Shown one piece after another: positions 1,006 through 64,000 of a DNA stretch of 64,000 nucleotides. Numbering within the stretch: the stretch's first letter is position 1; each line of letters opens with the position of its first letter. The stretch lies in contig PLLJ01000034.1 of the NCBI GenBank assembly GCA_003140935.1, positions 79,505-143,504 on the forward strand, read 5' to 3'. The notes beneath the pieces are model-generated. The model searched no databases and was not told the DNA's origin. It saw nothing but the letters and a program-made list of their open reading frames with translations. The stretch comes from Candidatus Omnitrophota bacterium. GTDB taxonomy: Bacteria; Omnitrophota; Omnitrophia; Omnitrophales; Aquincolibacteriaceae. A program made the translations under genes and the position numbers.

Positions 1006-1066
1006 AGGTTCCTCTGGGTGCAAAGACGGCCCTGATTCATATTTTCTTCTAATCCACGGTAATCAG

Positions 1067-1111
1067 TGCCGCCCCAATTTCATCTTTGTTAAAATTGATA
1101 AGTATTGGGAC
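1067..1111 (-). repeat. REP/MITE-like hairpin element, copy 5 (inverted orientation)
   Basis: tgccgccccaatttcatctttgttaaaattgataagtattgggac is the reverse-complement arrangement of the consensus GTCCCAATT..ATCAATTT(stem-loop)AAATTGGGGCA found at 4495, 12945, 26435 and 44645. Confidence 0.5.
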
Positions 1112-1233
1112 GCGCTATTGTAACAAAACACGTTTTAAGGCGACAGCCCAAACTTATCATTTCGTTCCCAAAATGGTAGTTTGGGCAGCCCCCATTTCAA
1201 CAAAACTAAAATTGAAAGGTGTTGAGACAGGCA

Positions 1234-2957: not shown

Positions 2958-2960
2958 TTA

Positions 2961-3599: not shown

Positions 3600-3632
3600 A
3601 TCGTGAGAGATCTGGAAGATAAATCCTAAATC

Positions 3633-3676
3633 AAATCAAAAAAAAAGAGGGGGTCGCGAAACCCCCTCTTTTTCGA
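3633..3676 (-). terminator. rho-independent terminator downstream of the 3694-4023 gene
   Basis: aaaaaaaaa GAGGGGGTCGCGAAACCCCCTC tttttcg: a GC-rich hairpin flanked by A and T runs. On the minus strand the hairpin is followed by a U-run. Confidence 0.6.
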
Positions 3677-3693
3677 ATACAAAATACAAACAA

Positions 3694-4023
3694 CTATTTT
3701 CCGCTAAGATCCACCGGGCTTGGAATTTCAATGTCAGCCGGGATCGGGAAGGTGACCAACTGAACGGCACCAAGAACCGTGGTGACACAGGTATCCATCA
3801 AACCCTGTCCAACGCCCTGCCAAACATTCTTCTTCTCATTGGAGTATTGGTTCGGAGTGGTAAAAATCTTGGTCCAACCAAGAACCGTGTTGGTCAAGCC
3901 ATACCCGAGCTTTCCCGAAACCTTCTCACCATAGGTTTTTCCATCCACCCACGGACTCGCGGCAAAAGCCAACGGCGCGAGCAGCATGGAGAGTACAATC
4001 ACCAGACTCATGATCTTCTTCAT
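3694..4023 (-). CDS. small secreted protein, probable exosortase-system-associated family (TIGR04073-like)
   Basis: 109 aa with a signal peptide. KLGYGLTNTVLGWTKI and GVGQGLMDTCVTTVLGAVQLVTFPIP resemble the conserved blocks I recall for TIGR04073. A strong SD (caggagga) 7 nt upstream supports the start. Confidence 0.5.
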   Translation of the reverse strand: MKKIMSLVIVLSMLLAPLAFAASPWVDGKTYGEKVSGKLGYGLTNTVLGWTKIFTTPNQYSNEKKNVWQGVGQGLMDTCVTTVLGAVQLVTFPIPADIEIPSPVDLSGK

Positions 4024-4087
4024 TGGTTTTCCTCCTGTTGGTTAGAACGTGAAACTTTTGAATCCCTCAAGATTCCGTTCTGGATTT

Positions 4088-4116
4088 ACTTTACTAAAAA
4101 AAATTTAATGATGCAA
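4088..4116 (-). promoter_or_regulatory. putative sigma70-type promoter for the 3694-4023 gene
   Basis: Minus strand reads TTGCAT-17 nt-TAAAGT, about 60 nt upstream of the start codon, in an AT-rich 360-bp intergenic region. Confidence 0.3.
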
Positions 4117-4389
4117 CCGATATTTCCATTTTTTTAATAGGATCATCGAGAGGTGTGCTATCGACCTCCCCTAAAAAAACTTAACGAAATCCCTTTACCC
4201 GGCGTGCAAGCCGGGTCCCGATCGAGGCGGCACACGATTGACATCAAATCGTGGTAACCTCGCATTTGCGCATCGGCGCAAGTGTTACTAAACCAAACCG
4301 CCCTAATACAAAAAACGCATTAGGACAGACCCTTTTTTTGTCTCTCAGGAAGAAAACCTTCGGTTTTCTATATCAACGCAAAAAAAGGG

Positions 4390-4462
4390 TCGGGGTGAGA
4401 GGAATTGAACCTCCGACATCTTGCTCCCAAAGCAAGCGCTCTAGCCCCTGAGCTACACCCCG
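4390..4462 (-). tRNA. tRNA-Pro (anticodon TGG)
   Basis: Minus strand: CGGGGTGTAGCTCAGGGGCTAGAGCGCTTGCTTTGGGAGCAAGATGTCGGAGGTTCAATTCCTCTCACCCCGA. 7-bp acceptor, anticodon stem CTTGC/GCAAG, loop TTTGGGA, T-loop TTCAATT, no encoded CCA. Confidence 0.85.
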
Positions 4463-4494
4463 AAGTGACCTTGTGATTTTTTTATATCGGAACT

Positions 4495-4552
4495 TCGGGG
4501 TTGTCCCAATTTTCCGATCATTTCAAATCGAAATTGGGGCACCCCGAAACAA
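4495..4552 (+). repeat. REP/MITE-like hairpin element, copy 1 (divergent)
   Basis: ggggttGTCCCAATTTtccgatcatttcaaatcgAAATTGGGGcaccccgaaac: inner CCCAATTT/AAATTGGG stem plus an outer CTTCGGGG/CCCCGAAA stem. Lacks the TTGTCACC..TTTAAAAAAAG tail of the other copies. Confidence 0.5.
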
Positions 4553-4615
4553 CTTCGTACCTTACTTAAGGCGAACGCCATTGTATCGACCGAGCCTATT
4601 GATGGCAAATGCTTC

Positions 4616-5698
4616 TCAAAATATCGACCGTTCTTTGTAGACGCTCAAGACAAGCCCCAGACAAAGACAGGTCATGATGAAAGAAGACCCCCCGTAACTG
4701 ACCAGGGGAAGCGGCACTCCGGCGATCGGCATCAGTCCGATGGTCATCCCGACATTGATTATCACATGCGAAAAAAGGAGCGCGAGCACCCCCCCGCAAA
4801 GCATCTTCGCCTTCACGTCCGTTGTATGCTGCATGACCAGAAAGATCGAATGAAAAAGGAACCCGTAGAGACACAACACGAGAAGACTTCCGAGAAATCC
4901 CAATTCCTCTCCGATCACGCAAAAGATGAAATCGGTGTGATGTTCGGGAACAAAATGAAGTTGCGTTTGCGTCCCGGCCAAATATCCTTTGCCCCAAAAC
5001 CCTCCCGACCCGACCGCGATCTTGGACTGGAGAGCCGTGTAGCCGGAACCCAGAGGATCCAGGCTGGGGTTAAGAAATACCATCAAACGCTTCTTCTGAT
5101 AACCCTTGAGAAATCCCCAGGCTAAAGGAGCTGCAAGCAACAGTGCGCTCAGACTCGTAATGAGAAAACGTTTTCGCACACCCCACAGGAAAAGTATGAC
5201 GATCGACATGGGGATAAAAAGAAGTGCCGTTCCGAGATCGGGCTGTTTGATGATCAGAAAAAGCGGCACGGCCAGAAGCAAGAGCGCGACACTTACCGTC
5301 TTAGTCTGACCTTCCCATGGATGATGGGATCCCAAGAAATTGACACCGGCCAGGAGCGCTCCGACTTTCGCGAATTCCGAAGGCTGGATCGCAATGGGAC
5401 CTAACGTCAGCCATCTCTGAGCACCCAAAACCTTGCTTCCAAAAAAATCGACCAAGACAAGCAAAATGAGCGTCAGAAAATAAAAAGGATAAGAAACGCT
5501 CAGGAAGGGACGATATCCGATAAAGGGAACGCTGATCAGCACCACCAAACCCGCCAAAATCCAGAAGACCTGCTTGGCCTCATAATTCCCTGGGTCACGA
5601 TAAGATGCGCTGTAAATAAAAAGGATCCCGATCGCGGCCAAAGCCACCACCGCAAAAAAAAGCGGGAAATGGATCTCGTTAAGCCACCGGCGCAACAT
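4616..5698 (-). CDS. rodA: rod shape-determining protein RodA (SEDS family peptidoglycan glycosyltransferase)
   Basis: 360-aa polytopic membrane protein of the FtsW/RodA/SpoVE family, located immediately downstream of mrdA-mreDCB. Confidence 0.8.
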   Translation of the reverse strand: MLRRWLNEIHFPLFFAVVALAAIGILFIYSASYRDPGNYEAKQVFWILAGLVVLISVPFIGYRPFLSVSYPFYFLTLILLVLVDFFGSKVLGAQRWLTLGPIAIQPSEFAKVGALLAGVNFLGSHHPWEGQTKTVSVALLLLAVPLFLIIKQPDLGTALLFIPMSIVILFLWGVRKRFLITSLSALLLAAPLAWGFLKGYQKKRLMVFLNPSLDPLGSGYTALQSKIAVGSGGFWGKGYLAGTQTQLHFVPEHHTDFIFCVIGEELGFLGSLLVLCLYGFLFHSIFLVMQHTTDVKAKMLCGGVLALLFSHVIINVGMTIGLMPIAGVPLPLVSYGGSSFIMTCLCLGLVLSVYKERSIF

Positions 5699-7406
5699 GA
5701 AGGTCCCTCCACGCCTCGAGCATCTGCTTCACAAGACGCGCGCTTGTGACACCCCCGGATCCGCCATGCTCCACGAACACGACGAACGCGATCTTCGGAT
5801 TTTTGTAGGGGAAAAATCCGGTCATCCAACTGTGCGCCTTCTGGGGCGGCGCCTGAGCGGTCCCGGTCTTGCCGGCCAGTTTATCAAAATCCACGCGCGC
5901 CAACTGCCCGGTCCCGTAATCTGATTCCACGACTTGGAGCATGGCCCTTTTGACCGCTTCAAGATTCTCTTCACGAATGGCTACCCGGGGAATCTCCGGC
6001 ATCACCGTGCTGTCTTGAACGACCAGGTGGGGCTCCACGACTTTGCCGTTCTTCGCGATGATCGAAGTAAGGCGGAGGATCTCGAAGGGAGTCACAAGCA
6101 TATAACCCTGCCCGATCGCCATATTGAGAGTTTCACCCTGGAACCAAGGCTGATTGAAATGCTCTTTCTTCCATGCGGAATCAGGGATGAGACCCGGAGC
6201 CATGCGCGAGATCTCGAGCTTGAGGGGCTCGCCGAGACCGAGTTCGTGGGCATAATGTGCGATCTCATCCGGCGTTAATCTTTTGGCCACATTAAAAAAA
6301 TAGACGTTACAGGAACGCTCGAGAGCCTCGTAAAGATTAAGGCTCCCATGACCCTCATGATTCCAGCAATGCACGGGTTTTGATTTCGGACCCAATTGAA
6401 AAGTACCGGTACACCGGAACCGTGTTTGGGGAGTGATCTTCCCGAGATCGAGTCCGGCGAGCGCCGTCACCAGTTTGAAGATCGAACCGGGAGGATAAGC
6501 GGCGTTGATCCCGCGATCCAACATCGGAGAGTTCTCGTCCTTCAGGATACGGAGACGCTGTTCACTGGCCGCCGGGGAAACAAAAATATTCGGATCATAG
6601 GCCGGTGCGCTGGCCAGCGCCAGAAGCCCGTCCGTCTCGAGGTCCAGAACGGCAATGCTTGCATGCAGACCGTTGACCATGCTCATGATCTTCTTTTGGA
6701 ATTCGAGATCCAGCGTAAGCTTGATATCGGAACCCGCCTCGGGCTTGCGATCTGAAAGCACCCGGACCATTTGCCCGCGCGCATCCACTTCGATCTGTTG
6801 CCCGCCCCGCCACCCGCGAAGATCATCATCAAAAGCCCTTTCAATCCCGGCCCGACCGATCTTGGAGTTGATTCCAAACCTGTCGTGGTCCATATCCTCG
6901 TACTCGCGGGGACTCACCGCCCCAATGTAGCCGATCACGTGCGAAGCCGTTTCGCCGTAAGGATAATAACGGATGCCCTCAACACGAACACTTACGCCGG
7001 AAAGTTCCGGCCGTCGTTCTTCAATGAGGAATGCGAGTTCTTGAGGAACATCTTCCTTGATCACCGCCGGCGCGAATGGATACTCACGGCCCGCACTCAT
7101 GCGCCGTCGGACCTCCTTTTCCGGAATCTCCAATAACTTCGCGAGCCTTGGATAAACCTCAGGGGTGATATCTTCCGGAATCGCAATGACGTTGTAGGAA
7201 GGACGATTCGCGGCAAGCAACCGATCCTTCTGATCGAGCACGCGTCCGCGCGGAGCTTCGAGAGGAATAAGGCGAACTCGGTTACGCTTGCTGAGTTCGT
7301 AGTAGTAAGACCCGCGCAAAACCTGCGTTTGGAAGAGCCCCAGCCCCAGAAGGGCCATGAGAATAAAAACGAACGTCTGGAAGAAATGAAACCGTGTGAA
7401 CATCAT
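5679..7406 (-). CDS. mrdA: penicillin-binding protein 2 (elongasome transpeptidase)
   Basis: SxxK (GSIFK), SxN (SCN) and KTGTAQ motifs. Follows mreD and precedes rodA. ORF track start 7448; I prefer the internal MMFTRFHFF start (7406), which abuts the mreD stop. Confidence 0.8.
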   Translation of the reverse strand: MMFTRFHFFQTFVFILMALLGLGLFQTQVLRGSYYYELSKRNRVRLIPLEAPRGRVLDQKDRLLAANRPSYNVIAIPEDITPEVYPRLAKLLEIPEKEVRRRMSAGREYPFAPAVIKEDVPQELAFLIEERRPELSGVSVRVEGIRYYPYGETASHVIGYIGAVSPREYEDMDHDRFGINSKIGRAGIERAFDDDLRGWRGGQQIEVDARGQMVRVLSDRKPEAGSDIKLTLDLEFQKKIMSMVNGLHASIAVLDLETDGLLALASAPAYDPNIFVSPAASEQRLRILKDENSPMLDRGINAAYPPGSIFKLVTALAGLDLGKITPQTRFRCTGTFQLGPKSKPVHCWNHEGHGSLNLYEALERSCNVYFFNVAKRLTPDEIAHYAHELGLGEPLKLEISRMAPGLIPDSAWKKEHFNQPWFQGETLNMAIGQGYMLVTPFEILRLTSIIAKNGKVVEPHLVVQDSTVMPEIPRVAIREENLEAVKRAMLQVVESDYGTGQLARVDFDKLAGKTGTAQAPPQKAHSWMTGFFPYKNPKIAFVVFVEHGGSGGVTSARLVKQMLEAWRDLHVAPVA

Positions 7407-28156: not shown

Positions 28157-28981
28157 TCATGGTTTTTTGCTATCGGTAGAAGAGCCGTAGGTGCGACACA
28201 GGGCTTTCTTTTCATCCGGATCGACAAAGAGCAGTTTTTTGTTGTCGTACCTCTTTCTCGCTAATTTTCTCGTCTCGGCCTGTCCGGGCGGCATGAGAGT
28301 CAGGGTATCCAGATATTCTGATTCACGGTCCGCGCAAACGGCGACTTCCATAAACTGGTTCAGGTCCGTGTCCAGATCTAAGACATCACCCCGTTTCATC
28401 CTAGCCAGCATGAGCGCTCTCAAAGCGTCAAAGTAATCCGTCATACCCTTTCTTTCGTACCGGGCCCTTTCGGAAAAAATCGCGGCTTTTCTAGAAAGAA
28501 GGCTTATGTCTCCGGGACTTCTTTTTAATTCCTCATCGATCTCTCTGAGGGCTTTTCCTCTCTCATTGCGAAGACCCAAATAATACCTGGCCCTGCGATA
28601 GACCTTCTTGGCGTCCCACACATACCATTTGGACTTTTTGGGAATAGCATCGTAGGCAATGATCGCGACCTCTTTGCCTTCCAAAAAAAACTGCCATATA
28701 TCGGGACGAGGCTCAGGCCCGTACTTGGGGGGTTCCGGGGATACAGCAAAATATTGATAGCCTTGGCCGACCACATATTCGCTGATCCTATACAGATCTT
28801 TGTTGGACATGCGGGGACTTGGAACCGGCCATTCGGTTTTCACCAGAGAATCATAGATGTCATAGCTGTCCAGGACCTTCACCTGGTCCTCCAAAGAATC
28901 CGCCCACAAAAGACCTGCCCCGGCAAAAAACAGCAGGACCATAAAACAAAATAATATTTTGCAATTCCCGGCAGGCATCAT
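28157..28981 (-). CDS. secreted hypothetical protein
   Basis: 274 aa with a signal peptide (ILFCFMVLLFFAGAGLLWA); no motif recognised. Confidence 0.45.
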   Translation of the reverse strand: MMPAGNCKILFCFMVLLFFAGAGLLWADSLEDQVKVLDSYDIYDSLVKTEWPVPSPRMSNKDLYRISEYVVGQGYQYFAVSPEPPKYGPEPRPDIWQFFLEGKEVAIIAYDAIPKKSKWYVWDAKKVYRRARYYLGLRNERGKALREIDEELKRSPGDISLLSRKAAIFSERARYERKGMTDYFDALRALMLARMKRGDVLDLDTDLNQFMEVAVCADRESEYLDTLTLMPPGQAETRKLARKRYDNKKLLFVDPDEKKALCRTYGSSTDSKKP

Positions 28982-36385: not shown

Positions 36386-36460
36386 TGGTCGGGGTGATAG
36401 GATTTGAACCTACGACCTCTCGGTCCCGAACCGAGCGCACTACCTCTGTGCTACACCCCG
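36386..36460 (-). tRNA. tRNA-Pro (anticodon CGG), CCA encoded
   Basis: Minus strand: CGGGGTGTAGCACAGAGGTAGTGCGCTCGGTTCGGGACCGAGAGGTCGTAGGTTCAAATCCTATCACCCCGACCA. Anticodon loop TTCGGGA. Confidence 0.85.
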
Positions 36461-36591
36461 ACGATATTCATATGCAATGATTTTATCTGTTCATTCAGTC
36501 CGCAAAAGGCGGACCCGGATTTTCCGCCAGACAGCGCGGCGGACCTGTCCCAAAGCGCTGTCGGACGGACCCGCCATCGCTTTTTGGCGGG

Positions 36592-36648
36592 GAACCTACG
36601 ACCTCTCGGTCCCGAACCGAGCGCACTACCTCTGTGCTACACCCCGAC
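36592..36648 (-). repeat. partial tandem duplicate of the tRNA-Pro(CGG) 5' portion (acceptor/D/anticodon arms, no T-arm)
   Basis: About 57 nt identical to 36404-36460 (aacctacgacctctcggtcccgaaccgagcgcactacctctgtgctacaccccgac), separated from the intact gene by about 130 bp. Confidence 0.7.
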
Positions 36649-45239: not shown

Positions 45240-45629
45240 TTATTTTACTGATTGGGATGGTTCGATCTGGATCTTGGCGAAATCCCCGCCTTTTTCCTGA
45301 AAAGCCTGCGCATAGATCCGGTACCGCTCGAAAAGGGCCTCTCCCTCTTGTCCGATTCCCACGATGCGCCGCGTCATGGACTTATTATCGAAAACCTTAT
45401 TCATAGGCATACGCCGTATCTCCTCCTGGATCTTCTGGATCTCGGCCTTTTTCGCGCGTATCGCTGCCGCGTAAGCGGATGCATAAGACTCTAGTTCTGC
45501 GAGGGGCATCGCTACCACTTCTTTTTGGATCTTTTCAATCGGCCTTTTCGGATCCGCTTTCCTCGCACAGCCTGTGAAAGGAATAAGCAGCAGGACTAAA
45601 AGATATACGGGGATAAATCGAAATCTCAT
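45240..45629 (-). CDS. lipoprotein (hypothetical)
   Basis: Signal peptide ending in the lipobox LIPFTGC, followed by a helical region. 129 aa. Confidence 0.5.
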
Positions 45630-45931: not shown

Positions 45932-48900
45932 TTACGCCGCAGTGCGGATCTGGAGATATCCTTGGATCGCTTGAAGGACGGCCTCCAGCAGGGTCCCGTG
46001 ATCATACTCGGAAGGTTTATGAATGTTGAACCGGTCCGTTTCCCACTGTTTGTCTAATGCCGCATAAAGCACGGTCGTGAGGGCTGCAGCGAGAGTCTTC
46101 ATGTCACCCGCGTCTTCCGTCACCCAACGGCTTCCAATCCCCTTGCGATAGGCGACCTGGTCGAAGGATCCGTTGTTACGCGCCACCAAAGCGTCTACCT
46201 TTTGAGTTCCTTTCAACAAGAACGGGTCCTCCTGCCGAGAAGAGACGATCTTGAGTTGATCGGGTGCCAATGTGATCCCCTCCTGTTTGGCTAGACCGCG
46301 GATCTTTTCACTGATGTCTTGAGTCGTTTTGTCGTCAGTATCGATGTTCATCAAAAGACGTCCACGCAATGATACAAGAGCTCCCAACACCACCGTAAAA
46401 TGTGTGATCAACTCCGACCGGTCATTCTCCGTAAGGCCCGTTAAATGAACATGGACCCGAGGTCCTTCAAGAGAAGTTCCGGACGGAAGCGCGGCGCCGG
46501 CCGGCACCGCTTTTTGGAACGTCTCCAAAACCTTCGCCAGCCGTTCATTCGAGATCCCCGAAGCCGCCGCTTGCATGAGAACTTTCTGTGTCATTTGCCC
46601 CACGACCCAACCCTGCGCGGCTTCCAACCCCGACAGTATCACTTGCCGGCCTTCTACAGTCACGGAAACTTGCTTGGGAAGATAAAACGCGATCCCCGAA
46701 ACGGAGAAAATGGTGTCCACGCTATCTGCGGCATCAACGACAGCATCCCGCGGAAACTCCGGTACGTCCAGGGAAAATGCCTTATTCGAAGCCGCAAGCT
46801 GATCTCTTGCCACAGCCGTTGGTCCCCGGAGTTCTGAACGACTCGGTACGCTTTCCGCCTTCTCGAACACGAACTCCTCTTGATGGAACTGCAATCCTTT
46901 CGCCGCCTGGATCATGAATGCTAAACCTTCTTCCAAATGAAAGAGTTCGCGACGGTGGCGGGGACCGATCGCGTCCCTGGATCCGGCCTGAATGCGGTCC
47001 ACCAACTCCCCGGACTCGAGGCGCTCCGTCTTGTGCCATCCCTTCAGATATCCTTCAATATACTCCGGCCGTTTTTCTCTCGCGGCGGGAGGATTCCACG
47101 GCTCACGCGACCATTCGAGGATCAGATCCGGAAATGTCTCCACGATCCCGCGAAATCCCGTGTACCCCGCGGGGATCTCGTCGAGAAGGCGCCGGACCGC
47201 GAGCGTCCAGACCTCTGTGGTCTTTTGGATATAACCCCGGATCGCCTGGTTATCATGTTTCCCACGAAGCGGATCATACCGATAGAGGGACGTTTCCCAT
47301 CCGTTATAGATTTCCTGAAATGCCACGGCTTCTCCCGCCCACACATTCAAGCGATTGCGTAAAGGCGTCAAAACCTTCCGGTCCGTGACAGAACCTTTAT
47401 AAGCTGGACGTGAGTCGAACCCTGCAAAGATCCGGTCCGCGATCTCCTTGGCCGACCGGATGCGTTCCGGATCCGCGTACCGGTTCTTTTTCATGTTTTT
47501 CTCGAGAGCCGTCAGTTCCTTAAACAATAAATTGAAATTCGAGTAGAAAAAGGGCGGCTTCCAGGTCCCGGTCATTCGTGCGCGGATAGCCTTCAAATCC
47601 AACATTCCGATCGCGTTCAAAAGCGCGGCGTTCTTTTCAAGAAGTCTGCCCTGCAAAACCTCCAGGTCCCGCGCATTTTCCTCCGTCCGCACTTCCGAGC
47701 GTTTCCCTTCCCGTGAGACCTTATCTCTTATGTCGGAACGTGCGGGTGTTTTCACCAGATCGCTTAGAGAGGTGACAATATGGTCGGCTATTTCACGAGA
47801 GCGGGCGGCCTCTTTGGCGGTCGCCGGCATTCCCACGAGCCAGAATTGCCGTCTAACTTCCGGTTTGATCCTCACTGCCCGATCAATGGCTTTGGAACTA
47901 TCATCAACGAAAATGGCTTTGGCTTCGGGAGGCAAGTCGCCTAGCGCCTTTGCCAGGACACTTATTTTTTCATCCAACGTGTTGACAAAAACGAGATCCT
48001 TTTCCGGATCCTCGAAATATTTCAGCAATCCGGTTTTTTGAATAATGGGTAAACGGAATTCTTTTTTCGATGTCGAAATGATCCGGACCCGCTTTCCCTG
48101 GTCTTTAGCTGCCTCAAAAAATTCCATCACCCCCGGCATAAGCAATCTTTGTCTCACTTCCTGTTCCGGCAATTGAAGAATCGAACGCAGGTCTTCATCT
48201 CTTCTAGTTTCGTAAAGTTTCAGGAAATACCCGGCAGGATCATTTATGCCAGGGAAAACAAGGTCTTTCCGTTCATTGAATAGAGTCTTTAAATTTTTTT
48301 CAGTAGATTCGCCGAGTCTTTGGTCATAAAACGCGGTTCCCTCCCGCAGCGCCTCGGGATCCGGCTTAAACCCTGAGGGATCCGCGATTTGATTGAAGAT
48401 CATTGAGTAAATATAAGCCGCGTGTTTCCGGTTTAAACCAATGGTGTCCAAAACAACCCCGTCCAGGTCCAAGTAAACATCCGTTATTTCATCGAACGAG
48501 AACGGCGCCTGATGATCGCCCCGCATCTCGGAACGCCGGGGCCAATGAAGAAAATACATCTCTGGGTTTTTAAAAATGGGTCTTAAGAAATCGCCGCGGA
48601 CAGGTTTCTTTAATAGATGAACCGGATGTTGTTCTTTTAACTCCCCGAGGATTTTATCTCCCACCTCATCGCCCATAAAAACGATCGGAACTCTCTCTAA
48701 ACCCGGCATCTTGACAGCCTCCAAGATCCACTCCGGCCCTGTCATTCCGGACATGGGGACTTTAGTAAGAATAGCGTCCGGTACCCCTTGGTTGAGCGCT
48801 TGCAGAGCCGCTTCCCCCGAAGATACCGCCGTGACCTTAAAACCATCTAAATTGAGCAACAGTTCCAGAGCTTCTAAAGCACTTTCCCTGTCATCAACGA

Positions 48901-60900: not shown

Positions 60901-63900
60901 CTTCGGAACGAACGGAAAAAGGTTGTCGCCCTTCTGTTTCCCGCACCGCTTGCCGCGAACCCTGCGAACCGGCGACGGGTCTTTTTTTCAAAAATAGATA
61001 ACGCCCGAGAAGATCGCCCACCGTCCACAAGGCACTGACAATCGTTCTAAGATCTCGTGGTTCAGACGGCTTTTCATCATTGACCCGCCGATAAGCCCGG
61101 TCATTCCACGCCACTCTTCCATCGAGCGGCACAACGTCCCAACCCGGGAATGGCATTCCATGCCGCGATGAATCATAGTCATAGAGGAGCACCTGCCCGG
61201 TAGGCTTAACCTCACGGCGCAAAAGTTGAACGACGTCCTGATTTGCGGTCCAAAGTCCCTGAGTCGTTGTCGCGCGAGGCATCGCGCCGGTCCAGAAGTA
61301 AAAGATCAGGTCGGCCGTCTTGAGGTGATCCTGCCGCACGGCCGGATCAAAAAAATCCCCCTCAACAAAAACGGCGGGAGCAAGGTCCATCTCGCCCGCA
61401 AGTCTGCTTTGAACGGCGAGGCCAACCTGGATCAGCTTCGGATCATGTTCAAAACCAACAGCTCGAGCACCCATGAGCGCCGCCAGGAGCACAACCCTGC
61501 CATCCCCGCTGCCAAGGTCCACAACCCGCTTGCCCGGACCAATCCCGAGGGATTGCAATCGTGCCCAAATTTCATGCAAAGGCGTCGGCTTGTAGATACC
61601 AGCGCTCGTCGGAGCCACGCCGGAACTCATGCCCACTCTCGCAAGCTCCTCTTCAATGATTTGCTCGACCCTGTCAAGCAGGACGGTGACCTCATCCGCC
61701 AGCAGAGTGCCTCCCCTCGCTTCGGAACGGGCTTCATCGGTTTTTGTGACAGCGGCAGAGGTTTTCATCAACGCGTCCCCACCAGCGATCAAATCTCTTC
61801 GCACGCGGTATATCTTGGGGTTATCAAAATCCCAGATCACGAAATCGCACTGCGCGATCAGCGCGTTGAGCAATTCATTTTTATCTCTTTTGAATTTCTC
61901 TTTTGATAGCGCATCTTCAGGTTCTGGAAGACTGAATATCGGTCCTAAAACAGCCACGGTGACGAGTCCCAGACGCCTGCCATTTTTTAATTCATTCACA
62001 TTGTCATCGAATAAAATCCCGGGGCCTTCTCGCTTGCTCATCTCCGTTCTAAACTCTTTTTCCTTGTCACCGACCGTGCCAATGTAAAATGGGATGCCTT
62101 GCGTGTCCGGAGGCATACTGATTTTTAAGGAACCGCGATTTAAATATCCGAGCGCTTCCGGAGAACTGCTGATAATGGCAATGTGACGCTCTTTTTCCTG
62201 GATCCTGTTCAAAAAATGTCTTGCGCCACGCACGAGGGCCGAAGGATTCGAGTCGATCAAGTCCTGCTCTTTATCGAAATACAGTTTCTGATAACGCGTC
62301 AAAACATCCGGAGTAACTTCCCATCCTCCGGCGCGAACGGCGTCCCGCAGGTCGATCTCTGAAAGAATCCTCTCAGACAAAGCGTTTCCCTTGATTGGCG
62401 GGATGCCGTATTCCGCCATTTGTTGAAGCGCAAATACCAGCGCTTCCCGGTGGGCATTTTCAATATACAAACTGGTATGGTGAAGCGTCTCATCCACGTC
62501 GAAAAGAAAGGTCTGGTATGTGCGAAGCCATTTCTCCAAAGATTCGGCAGGATCTTCGACGAGAAGCGGATGGCCGGCGAGTTCTTTTTTAACCCTTCCA
62601 TTTGAATCTTGCTGGATCGCCCAGAAAAAATCCCGGGGCGATGATTCGGCCGCAACAGGCTCGGCTCGCACCTCGGAGCGCTTGCCCTCCGTATCCCCTT
62701 CCTTTTGTCGATGATTTCTCTCGGGATTGAAACCTGCCATTCCTTGTTTTAATTTTTCTCTGACAGTATTCACTAAGTCAACGGAAACATTCATCGAATG
62801 GGTTATTAATTCATTGGTTTCTCCTCCTAAAATTTTGTCTGCTATTTCACGCTCAGTTCCCTGGTCAAGCGAATTCAGGATATCTGTTAATCGTTTATAA
62901 AATTCACGCCGGTAGGTATACCAATAAGGATCGATCTCGGTTTTGACCAGCCCCCTTTTTCCGTCGACCCATCCAGCTTGCAAAACAGGATTGCCGAAAA
63001 CCGAGAACGATTCGACCGTTTCAAGATCAATCATGATCGGCATTGCCTTCCGCCGGCCTGCCTGATCCTTGGCCCCAGGAACCCAACGCACCATGGGCCC
63101 TATCTGGAAGGCCTTGTAAAAAGTATCTTTCCCTTCCTCCAGACGGACCACGCACTGGACCCACCCATTGACACGGTCCGCCGCGATCACTGTCGCCGTC
63201 CATTTTTCGCCTGGTTTCGGGTAAGACCCCAGAACGGACCAGGTATAGATGTAATTATGGATATAAAAACGGACCGCTCCATAGCCATTCAAAAGTCCTA
63301 CTTTCAAACCCGGCAACCGGGCAACATCCTGAACATTCACTTCGGTTTTGCTGCCGATGGCTTCGATAATCCTTGAGAGCGGCCGGAGAACGGCCCGTTG
63401 GCTCAGCATACGCACTTCCACATTCGGCCGCCCTAAATTGCTTTTCAACATTTTGGATTCCGGCGAGACCTGGAAATAAAATATCTTAGGCTCGGCTCCA
63501 GACTTCTCTAAACTGATGCCGAATTGATACACACCATCCTTGACTCCCCCGTCGATAAGGTAGCCCGTGCGGTCTGCATAAGGCTTAAAGCTCAGGGTAT
63601 AGGCATAGCTTGCATCGCCCGGCACAGGATAGAAGACAAAATCCCCCTTAACAGGCGTTGGTTTGCCAAGCAATATTCTCTTGAAAGACCGTACCTTGTC
63701 GGGATTCTGGACCCAATCATAATCCGAGGGTTTCATCACAATTTCTGAAAGCGTATACAGCCCCGGACGCTCTAAAACCTCAAACACAGTGTCCGGCTCA
63801 CCTGATTTCGCTCCAACCCGCGCTTCCAAGGGACGACGATGGGGACCAACCTGAAACGTTTTTGGGAACGTTTCGCGACCTTGTTTGCGGAATTCGACAT

Positions 63901-64000
63901 GGAACAGGTACGCGCCATCCCGAACACCGGCCTCCAGGATCACCATCTCCCACCCGCTGTCGGCAAATCCAAGCATGAAAGGCAAATATTGAGACGCTCC
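45932..64000 (-). CDS. giant multidomain protein (>6017 aa in window; 5' end beyond window edge)
   Basis: Uninterrupted minus-strand reading frame of 18,054 nt, still open at the window edge (...GASQYLPFMLGF). Contains recognisable HAD, SAM-methyltransferase, protein-kinase-like, NAD-epimerase and receiver-like domains, plus TM segments and tandem repeats. Confidence 0.85.
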   Translation of the reverse strand, partial: GASQYLPFMLGFADSGWEMVILEAGVRDGAYLFHVEFRKQGRETFPKTFQVGPHRRPLEARVGAKSGEPDTVFEVLERPGLYTLSEIVMKPSDYDWVQNPDKVRSFKRILLGKPTPVKGDFVFYPVPGDASYAYTLSFKPYADRTGYLIDGGVKDGVYQFGISLEKSGAEPKIFYFQVSPESKMLKSNLGRPNVEVRMLSQRAVLRPLSRIIEAIGSKTEVNVQDVARLPGLKVGLLNGYGAVRFYIHNYIYTWSVLGSYPKPGEKWTATVIAADRVNGWVQCVVRLEEGKDTFYKAFQIGPMVRWVPGAKDQAGRRKAMPIMIDLETVESFSVFGNPVLQAGWVDGKRGLVKTEIDPYWYTYRREFYKRLTDILNSLDQGTEREIADKILGGETNELITHSMNVSVDLVNTVREKLKQGMAGFNPERNHRQKEGDTEGKRSEVRAEPVAAESSPRDFFWAIQQDSNGRVKKELAGHPLLVEDPAESLEKWLRTYQTFLFDVDETLHHTSLYIENAHREALVFALQQMAEYGIPPIKGNALSERILSEIDLRDAVRAGGWEVTPDVLTRYQKLYFDKEQDLIDSNPSALVRGARHFLNRIQEKERHIAIISSSPEALGYLNRGSLKISMPPDTQGIPFYIGTVGDKEKEFRTEMSKREGPGILFDDNVNELKNGRRLGLVTVAVLGPIFSLPEPEDALSKEKFKRDKNELLNALIAQCDFVIWDFDNPKIYRVRRDLIAGGDALMKTSAAVTKTDEARSEARGGTLLADEVTVLLDRVEQIIEEELARVGMSSGVAPTSAGIYKPTPLHEIWARLQSLGIGPGKRVVDLGSGDGRVVLLAALMGARAVGFEHDPKLIQVGLAVQSRLAGEMDLAPAVFVEGDFFDPAVRQDHLKTADLIFYFWTGAMPRATTTQGLWTANQDVVQLLRREVKPTGQVLLYDYDSSRHGMPFPGWDVVPLDGRVAWNDRAYRRVNDEKPSEPRDLRTIVSALWTVGDLLGRYLFLKKRPVAGSQGSRQAVRETEGRQPFSVRSEVRGGGRVATARLQRIDRGFQEYQDSFDSGETDFFLTEVQPVSVVRFQKIVKWLNVFNIPKSVLNLFLRGALIFILVAISGNPVIAIPGGIIRAALVFLFHSGGDLVSRPPRKIDLEKKKFQKRVLEAMRKRMNEASSLEEKRKLAQTPRFFGGYYFLAEYVLNELEKIPTSTQFFATDDHPSLREQLVDVFGACVDQIIRWKSTGAQHQKDWALLTRLFEFLTDPDQRVVVAAVRWLGQIESKIDDVTRNEIEKKYFEIATSQSSEVSRGAVVRGLRFIRTPKSFERMLEIIESDPSPWVQTYATEVIQFLLESGQYDARAVQYFYGPRLIRVLMKKASGEEGGKSSYIMRRVGSLKALAFLSWYEPNVVNNFRDILLHDTNAAVQEVALWALARAYAEYPQLSEGVDDLLKALLLYMEGKHEGQHNFLLANYARRLLGEFSRDAFNPLLKQKAIAASLERESAPQDGEDTPVILVAMDPLVPTTGPDAQKGAESDKVFDVVKIGQERGWTVLMAPRYRVDRDKAKAQNHFLSGTNLDLPRLVHAVNRLRKLLPIRVPSRDDKRNKADRHSTSPVIPKKGGPIVIFVNARELYEISLQISNLSPQIVLLQDHPELFHQRWRGMTVVKKYDPQDLIDLVEAAASQARQQATKAGTQLAAREIEEQRPSSVRSESREGEGLAAQRSPEERFRRFFGASSDRLLRWLASRASQPISSYEIRSERITDLWVYRRIVEKHTLRMGENTFTWFTKRYEGASLLRKFFLSWIRHEAIVTRHAFRLGLSPRTFMVVDRDNYFLTLISQTGHPLSEPINEVKAAAVGNALGRLHRGGVIHGDVVERINALIPRLEHFYVDQGTVRFIDFGEGKIGITSRNGFWERLRFALARKLEASKLGRALAHQAEDSIKDRVLQAYSRAYKEAYLGHVPAGGHQAESQRSEIREGAALSNPLKGSSPFHIGWNMYRWASYDREVAESLGIRLTTRATGLYYFLIELFGIKPEEAHAKGFDRLFWLWSQYMMVGDDLLDRFGKRLSVDEITEMLAEVDRTHKIDLRLRSRVAEAELRAAPISAVFPSDPRDGIQIIDSFPERFEQALSLTPLHETERQAMRDAFWQNSRVFLHSYLLERRGGLFPPLRDMTNIFTEKDDFRPLMQIATKVFRKFAPGQFRTRESLLHQAALFCQYLDDWMDYFSDYSVQPNMLWALAKERHPEEFQKLSAWVTPRSAASLTAANGALFRLAPKTTREYLLKARLVFRQALLSQKSIPRFMFAYFFFRYLWRTLSGVRIHRHAPDLAPQNGGEKVGHSEVREKQAQSAFTGARLVKLDPLRNRRALITAGIGVSMVMLSILSFLYQHWVLGLMSLVPSAGILFLSMEIFFGLNRLGFYSAYRWVTSEREIPIGLISHLVVLRSFGGPPFAELHLDRNEHLWKRQPGETPEQRKYRSTKMIYQNLLELARALRDEDASLKGIVFIREKFHVLAKSAWRQKYEDMGYDFDPVVVRRLTPFYRRWLDRVFRAPTAIISRENLIKAIPLLEQYVQVLDERLRTISDPGKGADDSTARSEARSEMRVEELGEAALKGLMIFRHGPFKKSQQEYISRLAVKIENEMNWRGPGTWGFHSAEIKKLSLQLATNAMNIVAATDGSLEAIKALFREEGSLFDAALVASLQDMVNEEAAAKKIVDQFDLLAAAFLRDFEDYPEKDKVLRQEYSNVMNMLVLYRRGYNFLRDYLGEEGIRDGILKVAGQPVSPGILSNLAKLVISLDKEWDIVHQSVKVKQQYLTAVFSVAATGSRGFTLLKQAMELWKDEGVTWAGMTDELKKQYLIAVYAVSIRGPKALESMEAVLKLWKQEGVVFSELTPELQKQFFTAVYKVAMTGSAATDAMEEIFKAWKKEGVVWTEMSNVLKQQYMIAVYVVAMRGKPAVKAMLEVLELWRADGVLWRGLSDSSKRQFLVAVYEAAWPGKEGVQAMKEVMGMWAEIGATWRGIQEASLGEGKNRENYEALKNQYLVAVYNVAMKGKTSLKKMKAVLALWKKEGVAWNGLDEVMQKQFLVAVYRVAVGDPEGPEAMGEILEFWRGQGVTWAGLDPKLGQQFMRMVYNIAMRGKDAAAVLPQVTAFLREEGINWETLSMELKNQYLTLVYCAAMRGMAGLVLMKNIMALWKSEGVAWPTLDSEALQSQFLTAVSSVAIRGQESLDTMKDVLALWHEAGVGAFQELQLARRNFLVAVFEVSVQGKDALEAMKGILALWKKEGVVWGNLSNLSRIGYLTAVYNAAIEGEEGRVSTEAALELWRKNGVIWSDLGNEALQRRFMVAVYNTSMFGHSGVAIMEQALQMWRDEGVVWSGLPADQRGLFLITVYFASVSGVGSTAILEHSFRTIKEKFGPGQSLRFMRLISSWIRLGENSEKVDAMLGRIQKAPGDERGQLIEQTRLELGRRVFEKLREYASKKRKSVTTVALDEDVTPAEDPGDIQRSEVREKASRVEKAAAEARNYRRQVGDWESEGGATARGPQAPTINDRSEMRTEERFVDVTDLTLEALQNFRLMTERGSLDAAPVSMGLLTEPVEVPLRLPAPEGVGRRGFLRATGTVGVLGAALWALGGATTLAGQVRKPAVPAKPAPADAASQAMRAMNQIRYAASLEPLQFNDWNGTKGNAIATVLGELNSFIEQWKKMPKQGAAPEKLGEIHRVFFLALAKRINSGTKLPEGYGLDYVRAIARLIHKDLPQFFAAQGLAFNVKGTAVENLTVQTTRGGQVVRSQDYFYPTLAMPDKYFFVLKANARRDLKVPAQVLGDEKTPLVLVQPVQIRIGGGQVQFSPYAEQWREGQNNELGFADGTTAFLRADLIEQALKYDRASLGKIDLGFLAGDFSLRDIIQGVRVGEPTVSQGKKTVKVISYPVTDLSSAAGYAAMKLMTAVTRTLDKGKTVFDFGLWQLARYLETAKHEITHVNDSHGNLWRTIWQMSQPASDHRVAQEDTNQAEVLIEQNARLEALRKVPAVSLVGLLATVQTGGRPVTNSDKAQAGILDAVTRELNRDPARYGIVIDAGLKLGRAIQITAQFYRIVEKPDRVEALYAAVRKALAIDARAQALASKYASLDPSASSSGRSEMREEELSVGQGERLPQDIYSVEMPVREFMTALKLEETRIVRRFREASSGLYATEVEIAHLDGRPLAVKGPHVLRELFDFDRQRLHGKSARFYVLYDDENLPLAIFPKEGQAPADVREHYNEMEFLTYSFLDLTDYRTPYDLLRTFGHPGDRAKWKEHALSLGVLKEKVAAFKNYYEQVLLKNAGEFPMTGDVSVGQHPFIYSEFDAREKKIKSVSFGPEFFLSDHPDRHSSLSDFNYDTGEDVQARERIFLDSGNPRAVFIRFWSVFNYMSSSYADGPFRRHVYDTVRETVPAMHAGDVIGDLGTGPGVMTWLAWIAAGDRRDEFEYAAADINPLAAANAETNLKYILKVPHVSVTVHDNLVSPEKTRAFPKPLRVLIINAPAYGYKDPGEPTGNVTLFDFHDGGKPGYQFWDGLIDGLPLSMDRERSMMLAWNFTGDGAAQDDPLFGRFENIPGVSSVRWGRSLPGETTAHHTYIAQFGRPESPRSEARTGSSISEVDKGMLKEKQVVLTGAGGNIGSVLFDELLGKAKHVTPLLLPAEIEPYAGYGFENAHKATIKTTELPDPKIQKEMVAQNDVIFHLAMWGAAIGAEKLSDPLILPEFLYKNVLPTAIFVRAAENAPHKPRIVFASTMRVYDLMDLKEQLSLEESGLKLDPELEAWIAMAVEFFTSISDLTDKAQALERVQGFLREHAPSERYTKNPDALAKIVSERIIDRYSNGISLRLGNVYGPAYDPQKTSLNRRLVHRYFFQVLHGEKEIRFDRVPKNLIYVDDVAHAFIAAATADLGPLGGQRVINVGASTRHTGEEVARTIVRVAGAKIALVPETDSKEKPRLLMDTQRMKSVLGLDPAGFVTLEEGVRRTWTWMNQHPDVFTDTWSNRFFRSEAREDRRPLEKPIKTILVVDDRESALEALELLLNLDGFKVTAVSSGEAALQALNQGVPDAILTKVPMSGMTGPEWILEAVKMPGLERVPIVFMGDEVGDKILGELKEQHPVHLLKKPVRGDFLRPIFKNPEMYFLHWPRRSEMRGDHQAPFSFDEITDVYLDLDGVVLDTIGLNRKHAAYIYSMIFNQIADPSGFKPDPEALREGTAFYDQRLGESTEKNLKTLFNERKDLVFPGINDPAGYFLKLYETRRDEDLRSILQLPEQEVRQRLLMPGVMEFFEAAKDQGKRVRIISTSKKEFRLPIIQKTGLLKYFEDPEKDLVFVNTLDEKISVLAKALGDLPPEAKAIFVDDSSKAIDRAVRIKPEVRRQFWLVGMPATAKEAARSREIADHIVTSLSDLVKTPARSDIRDKVSREGKRSEVRTEENARDLEVLQGRLLEKNAALLNAIGMLDLKAIRARMTGTWKPPFFYSNFNLLFKELTALEKNMKKNRYADPERIRSAKEIADRIFAGFDSRPAYKGSVTDRKVLTPLRNRLNVWAGEAVAFQEIYNGWETSLYRYDPLRGKHDNQAIRGYIQKTTEVWTLAVRRLLDEIPAGYTGFRGIVETFPDLILEWSREPWNPPAAREKRPEYIEGYLKGWHKTERLESGELVDRIQAGSRDAIGPRHRRELFHLEEGLAFMIQAAKGLQFHQEEFVFEKAESVPSRSELRGPTAVARDQLAASNKAFSLDVPEFPRDAVVDAADSVDTIFSVSGIAFYLPKQVSVTVEGRQVILSGLEAAQGWVVGQMTQKVLMQAAASGISNERLAKVLETFQKAVPAGAALPSGTSLEGPRVHVHLTGLTENDRSELITHFTVVLGALVSLRGRLLMNIDTDDKTTQDISEKIRGLAKQEGITLAPDQLKIVSSRQEDPFLLKGTQKVDALVARNNGSFDQVAYRKGIGSRWVTEDAGDMKTLAAALTTVLYAALDKQWETDRFNIHKPSEYDHGTLLEAVLQAIQGYLQIRTAA
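47710..48520 (-). other. giant protein: HAD-superfamily hydrolase domain 2
   Basis: Motif I YLDLDGVVLDT, downstream RIISTSKK, and motif IV-like AIFVDDSSKAID. Confidence 0.55.
48540..48940 (-). other. giant protein: receiver (REC)-like domain with Lys in place of the phospho-acceptor Asp
   Basis: KTILVVDDRESALEALELLLNLDGFKVTAVSSGEAALQAL..PDAILTKVPMSGMTG aligns to the CheY-like ..PDLVLLDxMMPGMDG with D replaced by K. Confidence 0.45.
48960..50130 (-). other. giant protein: NAD-dependent epimerase/dehydratase (extended SDR) domain
   Basis: KQVVLTGAGGNIGSVLFDELL (Rossmann GxGGxxG) and a downstream Y...K region (YTKNPDALAK), about 390 aa. Confidence 0.5.
50150..50800 (-). other. giant protein: SAM-methyltransferase-like domain 2
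   Basis: AGDVIGDLGTGPGVMTWLAWIAAGD...AAADINP...LRVLIINAPAYG. Confidence 0.45.
53110..53195 (-). other. giant protein: internal twin-arginine (Tat)-like signal/TM segment
   Basis: GVGRRGFLRATGTVGVLGAALWALGGATTLAGQ: an RRxFLR motif, then a hydrophobic h-region, then an A-x-A-like site. Confidence 0.4.
53800..55610 (-). repeat. giant protein: about 14 tandem 43-aa repeats (k.QyL.AVY.VA..G......m...L.LWK.EGV.W..L...l)
   Basis: For example KKQYLIAVYAVSIRGPKALESMEAVLKLWKQEGVVFSELTPEL and QKQFFTAVYKVAMTGSAATDAMEEIFKAWKKEGVVWTEMSNVL. Conserved at protein level; divergent at DNA level. Confidence 0.7.
56700..56990 (-). other. giant protein: transmembrane hairpin (2-3 predicted TM helices)
   Basis: ITAGIGVSMVMLSILSFLYQHWVLGLMSLVPSAGILFLSMEIFFGL, then IPIGLISHLVVL. 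Confidence 0.5.
58110..58880 (-). other. giant protein: protein-kinase-like domain of the Kdo/WaaP/RIO type
   Basis: GRLHRGGVIHGDVVERINALI (catalytic loop HGD...N) and TVRFIDFGEG (DFG-equivalent). Confidence 0.5.
59650..60250 (-). other. giant protein: HEAT/PBS-lyase-like helical repeats
   Basis: VVAAVRWLGQIES..., PWVQTYATEVIQFL and HDTNAAVQEVALWALARAY are typical short HEAT-like repeat signatures. Confidence 0.4.
60915..61712 (-). other. giant protein: class I SAM-dependent methyltransferase domain 1
   Basis: GKRVVDLGSGDGRVVLLAALMGARAVGFEHD (motif I with acidic post-I residue), VEGDFFD, ADLIFYFW. Confidence 0.55.
61735..62665 (-). other. giant protein: HAD-superfamily hydrolase domain 1
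   Basis: Motif I FLFDVDETL (DxDxT) at the domain N-terminus. Downstream are ISSS (motif II-like) and GILFDDNVNE (motif IV-like). Confidence 0.55.
62690..64000 (-). other. giant protein: repeated small modules (G..DG.Y.F.v...k.G.e..pK.FQVgP), unknown fold
   Basis: AGVRDGAYLFHVEFRKQGRETFPKTFQVGP, GGVKDGVYQFGISLEKSGAEPKIFYFQVSP and VVRLEEGKDTFYKAFQIGP recur in the N-terminal about 430 aa seen in the window. Confidence 0.4.

Follow-up and report, generated by a model that had tools for sequence, protein, structure and literature searches.

We analyzed a stretch of 64,000 nucleotides (nt; hereafter the window) of contig PLLJ01000034.1 (assembly GCA_003140935.1, positions 79,505 to 143,504 of the forward strand) from an uncultured Omnitrophota bacterium of peat. 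Its minus strand contains the C-terminal 6,022 codons and the stop codon of a single giant gene that encodes a protein of 7,831 or 7,854 amino acids (aa). Reading the translation revealed that the domain boundaries of this protein carry the pentapeptide Arg-Ser-Glu-(Val/Ala/Met/Leu/Ile)-Arg (RSEΦR). With moderate confidence, we propose that the giant protein is a polyprotein predicted to be cut into separate proteins at this peptide. An earlier sequence-only reading of the window, made by a model, had described the gene as a beads-on-a-string fusion of unrelated enzyme domains. The multidomain character of the single open reading frame (ORF) was borne out, but that description missed the junction pentapeptide as well as the constant N-terminal (head) and C-terminal (tail) modules, and it is these elements that speak for the processing of a polyprotein and against a fusion enzyme. 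In the following, P0001 denotes the full protein of the giant gene, whereas residues given as window aa are counted from the window edge at position 64000.

A pentapeptide marks the module boundaries

The full protein contained 20 exact RSExR sequences, as compared to 0.17 expected from shuffled sequences; the part encoded in the window has 15 exact copies and the variants HSEVR and RSDIR. The two relatives retrieved in the first search (5,454 and 5,075 aa; 50% and 26% identity) were giants themselves, shared approximately 10% of the query and had 9 and 13 RSExR copies, respectively. Across 152 head-bearing giants, namely the best proteins of a profile search with the head that show at most 50% mutual identity, R[SA]ExR occurred 792 times versus 27 ± 5 expected, and RSD.R, KSE.R, RSE.K, and RTE.R stayed at background. 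A de novo scan of gapped 5-mers returned RSE.R as the most overrepresented word in about a dozen species and RAE.R in two lineages. The 47 ordinary ORFs of the window, 13,913 aa in total, had a single motif copy. Three same-frame RSExR sequences elsewhere in the window lie inside noncoding frames of other genes and were rejected as chance occurrences.

The profile derived from 175 instances consists of an invariant Arg, a Ser that strongly predominates over Ala, an invariant Glu, one of Val, Leu, Met, Ala, or Ile, and an invariant final Arg. The flanking positions each carried less than 0.35 bits, leaving a sharp island of five residues. The corresponding DNA sequence is CGY TCS GAR NNN CGN (15 nt). 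At the third codon position, E3 and R5 were at background, with R5 drawing on all six Arg codons, and the constraint at these two residues therefore acts on the peptide.

Modules are shuffled as cassettes between a constant head and tail

The modules between consecutive motifs had a median length of 290 aa in the 152 giants. Among the BLAST homology blocks between giants, 27.7% began within ±10 aa of a motif, compared to 4.2% at random, and the blocks terminated exactly at the next motif. In alignments of junctions, similarity extended through RSEMR and halted immediately after R5 where the downstream modules differed. Since homology blocks start and end at the motif, we conclude that the modules shuffle as cassettes. 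Their order and copy number varied among giants, as illustrated by the relative on contig L030, which consists of the head, four receiver modules, and the same tail. A total of 447 of the 837 modules were singletons, and wide distribution was limited to the head (present in 142 of the 152 giants) and a small number of tail families at the C terminus. The identifiable cargo corresponds to proteins that normally stand alone, including HPr, receivers, UDP-glucose dehydrogenase, starch synthase, APH kinases, and methyltransferases.

The tail module has a generic alpha/beta fold and recurred in 19 to 24 other giants, in which it was always C terminal, was preceded by a motif, and ended in (A/S)A-COOH. 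A search with the tail profile returned contig-end fragments only, a result of low weight since the candidate index was saturated at 8,000. In 19 homologous tails, the terminal (A/S)-Ala follows a conserved QGY.QI stretch (in the window, QGYLQIRTAA at 45935-45950); such an end is reminiscent of LAA, with which the ssrA tag terminates, and of the substrates on which C-terminal processing proteases act.

The giant protein and its first two relatives had an N-terminal domain, the head, in common. Scanning reference genomes with this domain identified 397 relatives, nearly all of them in metagenome-assembled genomes of Candidatus Omnitrophota, often several per genome, the closest having 80%, 73%, and 62% identity. 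The suggestion of the sequence-only reading that this is an Omnitrophota-type giant gene was thus correct. When 1.84 billion cluster representatives were searched with the head profile, 8,477 matches were obtained, 2,337 of them with an E value of ≤1e-30; the domain was N terminal in nearly all of these proteins, most of which are thousands of residues long.

At four loci (L012 6-9578, L021 21-3872, L028 14-3670, and L059 13-9624), the head-bearing ORF is closely preceded, in the same orientation, by the end of a second motif-rich ORF with 3 to 7 motifs, showing that giants of this family can be arranged in tandem. Directly upstream of the giant gene, outside the window, an ABC-F ATPase (ABC_tran, ABC_tran_Xtn, and ABC_tran_CTD domains; 7668-9572 of contig L086, which carries the complete gene) is encoded, and the same gene occupies this position in the five closest relatives (L007, L008, L013, L014, and L030). 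ABC-F proteins are ribosome-associated factors; the adjacency may simply reflect conserved synteny.

The head is a predicted hydrolase of the TIKI superfamily

The head has an alpha/beta core with a parallel sheet and is structurally similar to ChaN, Ere, and RRSP. The TIKI-superfamily proteins that resemble it comprise two Ere-like "succinoglycan biosynthesis" proteins, ChaN, HopBA1, RRSP, EreC, and a TraB protein. In 31 heads, residues D7, H9, Q15, E37, E113, E334, R415, and H445 were invariant. The 2His/2Glu motif that defines the superfamily (RRSP, E3900, H3902, E3930, and H4030; Bcr135, H85 and E113; PMC6254334) is represented in the heads by D7-x-H9, E37, and H445, and the spacing of 28 residues between His and Glu is the same as in RRSP and Bcr135. 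RRSP, an effector of MARTX toxins, is an endopeptidase specific for Ras/Rap1. The head differs from the TIKI/TraB/ChaN/erythromycin-esterase/RRSP superfamily in that its first acidic residue is Asp instead of Glu and in that it possesses a helical insertion of approximately 300 aa. The D-x-H motif, the Glu exactly 28 residues later, and the late His make it very probable that the head is active as a hydrolase, be it a peptidase or an esterase.

In family searches, Pfam PF04187 matched 7 of 31 members, at best with an E value of 0.0016 and with bit scores below the cutoff; no head matched PF04187 or PF01963 above the Pfam gathering threshold, and a PDB profile search with the head alignment gave no match. 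A Sec signal peptide was present at the start of 57 of 69 complete heads.

The region upstream of the giant gene, outside the window (L086 2368-7058), contains radical SAM (S-adenosylmethionine), uroporphyrinogen decarboxylase, protoporphyrinogen oxidase-like, and ferrochelatase genes of heme biosynthesis. They precede a gene whose head resembles the heme-binding ChaN, and a cargo module of another giant matches the hemophore family PF16525; this may be a coincidence.

Proposed processing of the giant protein

According to our proposal, the giant gene would be translated as one chain of approximately 7,850 aa with a "head-cargo-tail" organization. The chain would start with a Sec signal peptide and the hydrolase head of the TIKI/ChaN/EreA/RRSP superfamily, continue with approximately 20 protein-sized cargo modules, comprising enzymes, regulators, and membrane-anchored and exported proteins, and end with a conserved two-module tail. 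The pentapeptide present at every module boundary would serve as the recognition site of a site-specific endopeptidase that would cut most likely just past the second Arg. The modules would thereby be freed as separate proteins, each destined for its own compartment: the head would be exported by Sec and a few modules by their own Tat (twin-arginine), Sec, or lipoprotein signals, and most would remain cytoplasmic. The head is the only candidate protease encoded in cis, and a cytoplasmic protease that acts in trans is no less likely. We infer the cleavage itself, the position of the cut, and the cutting enzyme from sequence features.

The location of export signals is consistent with this proposal. 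Targeting signals of the Sec, Tat, and Lol pathways work only near a free N terminus. When 756 motifs were inspected, hydrophobic segments were enriched 10 to 45 residues past the motif, and none of the motifs had a hydrophobic 15-mer within the 45 aa preceding it. A lipoprotein signal with a lipobox starts 1 aa past RSEAR in P0132, a Sec-like signal starts 1 aa past RSELR in P0002, and twin-arginine signals start 2 to 5 aa past the motif in P0015, P0041, and P0103. In the family of the Tat/HExxH module of the giant gene, described below, this distance is 55 to 72 aa, and both transmembrane (TM) hairpins of the giant protein lie 22 to 55 aa past a junction. Furthermore, among the flank positions, the depletion of bacterial N-degron residues was strongest immediately after the second Arg (+1; 15.8% versus 32.3%), which lends weak support to the proposal given that the depletion partly reflects general linker composition.

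Several observations weigh against the proposal. Only about 2% of the modules open with a hydrophobic signal. The cargo modules include no recurrent recognizable protease, and the neighborhood of the giants (79 loci, the window, and 10 kb upstream) lacks a conserved protease gene. Cutting in the cytoplasm fits poorly with the predicted export of the head, and the membership of the head in the TIKI/ChaN/EreA/RRSP superfamily is by fold alone no proof of a peptidase, as the TIKI superfamily also includes esterases and the heme-binding ChaN. There are 27 long head-bearing ORFs that have neither RSExR nor an alternative junction peptide and that nevertheless keep the catalytic residues of the head; the activity of the head is therefore not tied to the motif. 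A codon bias at R1 and S2, detailed below, is not explained by peptide-level selection alone, and the case for cleavage is built on sequence throughout. The Tat/HExxH module was considered as the junction protease and ruled out, as it occurs in only 3 to 4 giants and is exported.

The cleavage reading predicts new N termini past RSEΦR that are lost upon Arg-to-Ala substitution. Omnitrophota and other ultrasmall symbionts are characterized by giant genes, and the missing cleavage points had blocked their structure-based annotation; the strict junction peptide offers a rule for the in silico segmentation of thousands of giant ORFs and may define a new protease-and-site pair with potential as a tool. 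If our proposal is correct, a free-living or parasitic bacterium would use a polyprotein strategy for housekeeping-type proteins, and the reading of gene number, operon structure, and expression stoichiometry in reduced genomes would change. A broader idea is that a large Omnitrophota clade makes many of its ordinary proteins as self-processing polyproteins, with the TIKI leader or a dedicated partner protease cutting the nascent chain at RSEΦR and a single round of translation yielding dozens of enzymes, regulators, and membrane and exported proteins. This idea is tentative and, in our view, doubtful; were it true, bacterial giant genes would have their first cleavage code, and thousands of genes would represent a cellular equivalent of the viral polyproteins.

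Alternative readings of the giant protein

The giant protein might instead be an uncleaved multienzyme scaffold, a single membrane-tethered chain in which RSEΦR is bound or modified rather than cut and serves for partner docking, as a phosphorylation site, or as folding punctuation. This is in agreement with the published treatment of giants as single polypeptides that have numerous TM segments and with the detection by proteomics of peptides of one giant; no protease was found, and a scaffolding role is conceivable for the HEAT and 43-aa repeat modules. We nevertheless regard it as unlikely, since a docking or modification motif need not mark every boundary nor match the recombination breakpoints, since internal lipoprotein and Tat signals would have no free N terminus nearby, and since a Sec-exported head in one chain with NAD-, SAM-, and phosphoenolpyruvate (PEP)-dependent enzymes results in an incoherent topology.

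Somewhat less probable still is a secreted multieffector polyprotein comparable to the MARTX toxins of Vibrio and relatives, in which the Sec signal would export the whole chain, the cargo would act in or on prey or host, the head and tail would serve delivery, and RSEΦR would be cut after export or delivery, possibly by the TIKI-like head. Omnitrophota have been inferred to be predators or parasites, with giant ORFs tied to prey contact (PMC10066038). The combination of constant ends and shuffled cassettes on a very large chain matches MARTX toxins, in which strain-variable effectors are released by autoproteolysis at interdomain linkers (PMC6254334). Besides the Sec signal of the head, it is of note that both TM regions are hairpins, so that the flanking chain stays on one side of the membrane, and that the cytoplasm of a prey would suit cofactor-dependent enzymes. 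However, the internal Tat and lipoprotein signals past the motifs fit export from the cytoplasm of the producer after cleavage. The cargo is mostly of the housekeeping type, involved in metabolism and signaling (HPr, receivers, UDP-glucose dehydrogenase, and glycogen synthase), with no recognizable toxins or lytic enzymes. Pfam detected neither the glycine-rich A/B/C repeats of MARTX nor the cysteine protease domain (CPD) activated by inositol hexakisphosphate (Peptidase_C80) nor features of type I secretion, which is replaced here by the Sec signal, and no secretion-system genes were present in the 64-kb window or in the 10 kb upstream. The TIKI fold, found in MARTX in the effector RRSP, constitutes here the constant head and not cargo. 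MARTX CPD sites are loose and Leu dependent, in contrast to the strict pentapeptide of the giant protein.

A nucleic acid element, namely, a DNA recombination hotspot through which cassettes are exchanged or an RNA processing or recoding signal of which the peptide would be a by-product, appears very unlikely. It would account for the location of recombination breakpoints at the motif and for its codon bias: among 90 motif instances across loci, R1 was encoded by CGY in 77% of the cases and hardly ever by AGR, with a CGY share of 43% in the remaining Arg-Ser dipeptides of these genes, and S2 was encoded by TCN in 98%, compared to 66% elsewhere. In contrast, the wobble of the fourth residue is, like that of E3 and R5, at background, and this residue is limited by amino acid class (V/L/M/A/I) and not by nucleotides. 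RSD.R, KSE.R, and RTE.R, each one nucleotide away, are not enriched, and a 27-nt profile revealed neither flanking conservation nor an inverted repeat. Internal translation starts at the motif were likewise ruled out, since NTG makes up no more than about 40% of the fourth codons and there are no stops between modules.

The possibility of an artifact, in which assembly chimerism or frameshift errors fused adjacent genes, can be dismissed despite the origin of the window from short-read metagenome assemblies and the truncated 405-aa call on the 3.2-kb contig L006, as that call is explained by the contig end, the random loss of approximately 20 stops is excluded, and the independent contigs and homologs described in the next section agree.

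Extent and authenticity of the reading frame

The minus-strand frame is free of stops from 45935 to 64000 (6,022 codons) and ends with TAA at 45932-45934, in agreement with the single uninterrupted giant ORF of the sequence-only reading, whose 6,017 codons correspond to a count from the first TTG. The likelihood that a frame of this length arises by chance is approximately 1e-122, as estimated from base composition, and the other two minus-strand frames contain 230 and 266 stops. The N-terminal 1,809 (or 1,832) codons fall outside the window edge. Extension to the true 5' end, which had been proposed as a check, was achieved with contig L086, on which the complete gene spans 10001 (or 9932) to 33496 (23,496-23,565 nt) and has a single stop; position 64000 of the window is L086 15428. 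The longer, 7,854-aa version starts at an in-frame ATG 69 nt upstream, and its N terminus, MTTLFQRPWTRRGISLFVAIVFTMTTLTGGLPQAFA with the break before SAG, is a canonical Sec signal peptide.

Six ENA, JGI, and Logan contigs, which represent three sources and no fewer than five samples, match the window from 35 to 55 kb with 99.9-100% identity and give gene calls of 7,831 or 7,854 aa; the exact neighboring protein is present on 14 contigs. Hundreds of homologous giants in other species share the architecture. Of the two concerns raised at the outset, that chimerism or frameshifts break the frame and that the domains are normally separate adjacent genes, neither was confirmed.

The window contains 47 other ORFs, which are ordinary housekeeping genes that each have their own stop, including prmA, maf, rodA, PBP2, mreCB, an EPSP-synthase-family gene, glyA, purDMFLQCB, xerD, ligA, mraZ, rsmH, ftsI, mnmA, and mscL. 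Their normal stops imply a normal genetic code without stop codon reassignment.

Relation to known systems

Giant ORFs of >20 kb are common in Omnitrophota (Seymour et al. 2023, PMC10066038), and multienzyme giants with methyltransferase, HAD, GNAT, HATPase, receiver, and HEAT Pfam domains have been termed "Archaeovorin-type" (West-Roberts et al. 2023, bioRxiv 10.1101/2023.11.21.568195) or, for the same repertoire, class 1 "multi-enzyme metabolic clusters" (bioRxiv 10.64898/2026.06.07.730766). The gene analyzed here belongs to the same phylum and exceeds 20 kb in a single ORF. Like those giants, it combines many distinct Pfam domains, none of them dominant (HAD, methyltransferase, GNAT, HEAT, kinase-like, epimerase, and receiver, with a PEP-utilizer domain in relatives), has TM segments and an N-terminal signal peptide, and is unannotated over most of its sequence. 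The statement of the sequence-only reading that this is not a described system therefore did not hold, since multienzyme giants of Omnitrophota had already been published. With about 7.85 kaa, the protein lies below the cutoffs of 10 or 30 kaa used in the two preprints. Most Archaeovorins are reported to have a SecA DEAD-like domain and, close to the N terminus, a C39 or S8 peptidase, and no segment of the full giant protein had a Pfam match to SecA-DEAD, C39, or S8. West-Roberts et al. noted that the occurrence of cleavage in giants and its positions were unknown, which prevented segmentation (bioRxiv 10.1101/2023.11.21.568195).

The TIKI-like head, the tail, and the junction peptide were absent from the Omnitrophota papers searched, which did not include Kizina et al. 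2022, where similar features may be noted, and a literal literature search for RSEVR, RSEAR, and similar strings returned noise only. We conclude that the gene is a further member of the known class of giant multienzyme genes of Omnitrophota and that the junction motif, head, and tail are new with respect to the papers searched.

The viral polyproteins of picorna-, flavi-, poty-, and nidoviruses share with the giant gene the single ORF, a short conserved peptide between protein-sized units, a possible N-terminal cis protease, and products for different compartments. The giant gene differs in being located on a cellular chromosome with ordinary neighbors, in that its protease is only a candidate, and in that its cleavage is a proposal. 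To our knowledge, the TIKI fold is not used by viral polyprotein proteases. Condensation/adenylation/carrier domains of nonribosomal peptide synthetases, ketosynthase/acyltransferase/acyl carrier protein domains of polyketide synthases, and RTX (repeats in toxin), Ig-like, and cadherin-like domains were not found by Pfam in any segment, which agrees with the earlier view that the product is not an adhesin or of the RTX, polyketide, or nonribosomal peptide type.

Module composition within the window

The modules and junctions of the giant protein that lie in the window are listed in Table 1. Upstream of it, the protein adds the head, GNAT, another methyltransferase, and modules without Pfam assignment; eight segments of the giant protein had no family match even at an E value of 1.

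Table 1. Modules and junctions of the giant protein encoded in the window
Feature	Window aa	Position	Strand	Evidence or remark
Giant-gene part in window	1-6022	45932..64000	(-)	C-terminal 6,022 codons and TAA stop of the 7,831/7,854-codon gene
Module fragment with repeated units	1-440	62681..64000	(-)	Last 440 aa of P0001 module 1619-2249; no Pfam/NCBIfam match
Junction RSEVR	441	62666..62680	(-)	
HAD-like hydrolase module	446-757	61730..62665	(-)	DVDET motif; Pfam PF00702, E 1.3e-4, under gathering score
Junction RSEAR	758	61715..61729	(-)	
Class I SAM-methyltransferase-like module	763-1030	60911..61714	(-)	Pfam PF13847, E 2.4e-5, under gathering score
Junction RSEVR	1031	60896..60910	(-)	
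Membrane module: TM hairpin (1091-1134), then HEAT repeats	1036-1702	58895..60895	(-)	HEAT_2, E 9.4e-11; hydropathy
Junction RSESR	1703	58880..58894	(-)	
Bud32/Kdo-kinase-like small kinase module	1708-1965	58106..58879	(-)	NCBIfam TIGR03724, E 4.1e-10; Kdo kinase, E 2.7e-3
Junction RSEIR	1966	58091..58105	(-)	
Module without family match	1971-2331	57008..58090	(-)	66% identity to L007/P0004 873-1240; motif bounded in both
Degenerate junction HSEVR	2332	56993..57007	(-)	
Membrane module, TM hairpin (2359-2407) 22 aa past junction	2337-2587	56240..56992	(-)	No family match
Overlapping double junction RSEARSEMR	2588-2596	56213..56239	(-)	
Repeat module, 13-14 tandem helical-looking units of 43 aa	2597-3498	53507..56212	(-)	Identity autocorrelation peak at lag 43 (0.27)
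Junction RSEVR	3499	53492..53506	(-)	
Mini-module of 41 aa between two junctions	3504-3544	53369..53491	(-)	
Junction RSEMR	3545	53354..53368	(-)	
Exported module: Tat signal, then HExxH domain	3550-4130	51611..53353	(-)	GRRGFLRATG ~55 aa past junction
Junction RSEMR	4131	51596..51610	(-)	Homology with P0004 and P0002 ends directly after
Module with GDLGTGPG motif	4136-4618	50147..51595	(-)	Motif is sole methyltransferase basis; no Pfam/NCBIfam match
Junction RSEAR	4619	50132..50146	(-)	
NAD-dependent epimerase/dehydratase module	4624-5014	48959..50131	(-)	Pfam PF01370, E 1.3e-15
Junction RSEAR	5015	48944..48958	(-)	
Receiver-domain module (pseudo-receiver)	5020-5155	48536..48943	(-)	Pfam PF00072, E 1.2e-13
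Junction RSEMR	5156	48521..48535	(-)	
Second HAD hydrolase module	5161-5420	47741..48520	(-)	DLDGV motif; Pfam PF00702, E 4.3e-7
Degenerate RSDIR, 8-aa spacer, RSEVR	5421, 5434	47687..47740	(-)	
Penultimate module	5439-5720	46841..47686	(-)	No family match; common to 5 other giants, always adjoining the tail
Junction RSELR	5721	46826..46840	(-)	
Conserved tail module, alpha/beta fold, always last	5726-6022	45935..46825	(-)	Ends in QGYLQIRTAA-COOH

Most of the domains named in the sequence-only reading were recovered by family searches: the two HADs, with DxDxT-type motifs, the SAM methyltransferase, the HEAT-like repeats, the NAD-epimerase, the pseudo-receiver, and the Kdo/WaaP-type kinase-like domain, for which both NCBIfam matches are below the equivalog cutoffs. 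The single TM hairpin reported there turned out to be two, the 14 tandem 43-aa repeats were confirmed as 13 to 14 units, and the Tat-like segment does show the twin-arginine pattern. Two assignments held only in part: the second methyltransferase has a GxGxG-type motif but no match in Pfam or NCBIfam, and the N-terminal beta-like modules do consist of repeated units but lack a family match. The sole detected relative of the latter (window aa 1-440) was a repeated region of P0003. A genome scan with this segment gave no relatives among GTDB representatives, from which the species itself is absent.

The module at window aa 1971-2331 occupies a different position in its closest relative, L007/P0004. 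The receiver module belongs to a family with 14 copies in 5 other giants. Its phospho-acceptor Asp, at the end of beta-3, is replaced by Lys, as read in the stretch PDAILTKVPMSGM, and the module is therefore considered a pseudo-receiver; homologous modules of P0002 keep the Asp.

The Tat/HExxH module had no Pfam or NCBIfam match. Residues H420, E421, H424, H429, and E461 were invariant in the alignment of all four known copies (alignment A5), and the module is probably an exported zinc peptidase, which may represent an undescribed family. A homolog search with this module found none, a result that carries little weight since the gene itself was also missed.

Three junctions of the window are "empty", namely, the overlapping RSEARSEMR, the 41-aa mini-module, and the RSDIR/RSEVR pair. 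Similarly, P0003 contains two mini-modules of 34 to 43 aa (aa 3133-3175 and 3754-3787) with a repeated EMVPGTDPGTGTMR directly before RSEAR. Such empty junctions and mini-modules may be scars of module deletion or duplication.

Other observations in the window

Two small ORFs without Pfam match encode predicted secreted or lipoprotein-like proteins (28157-28981, 274 aa; 45240-45629, 129 aa), the second of which is located directly downstream of the giant gene. The intergenic region that separates ftsI from a short-chain dehydrogenase gene contains an exact direct repeat of 57 bp (36406-36462 and 36592-36648). At this repeat, assembly L001 differs from the window by approximately 100 bp, which suggests copy number variation in the population.

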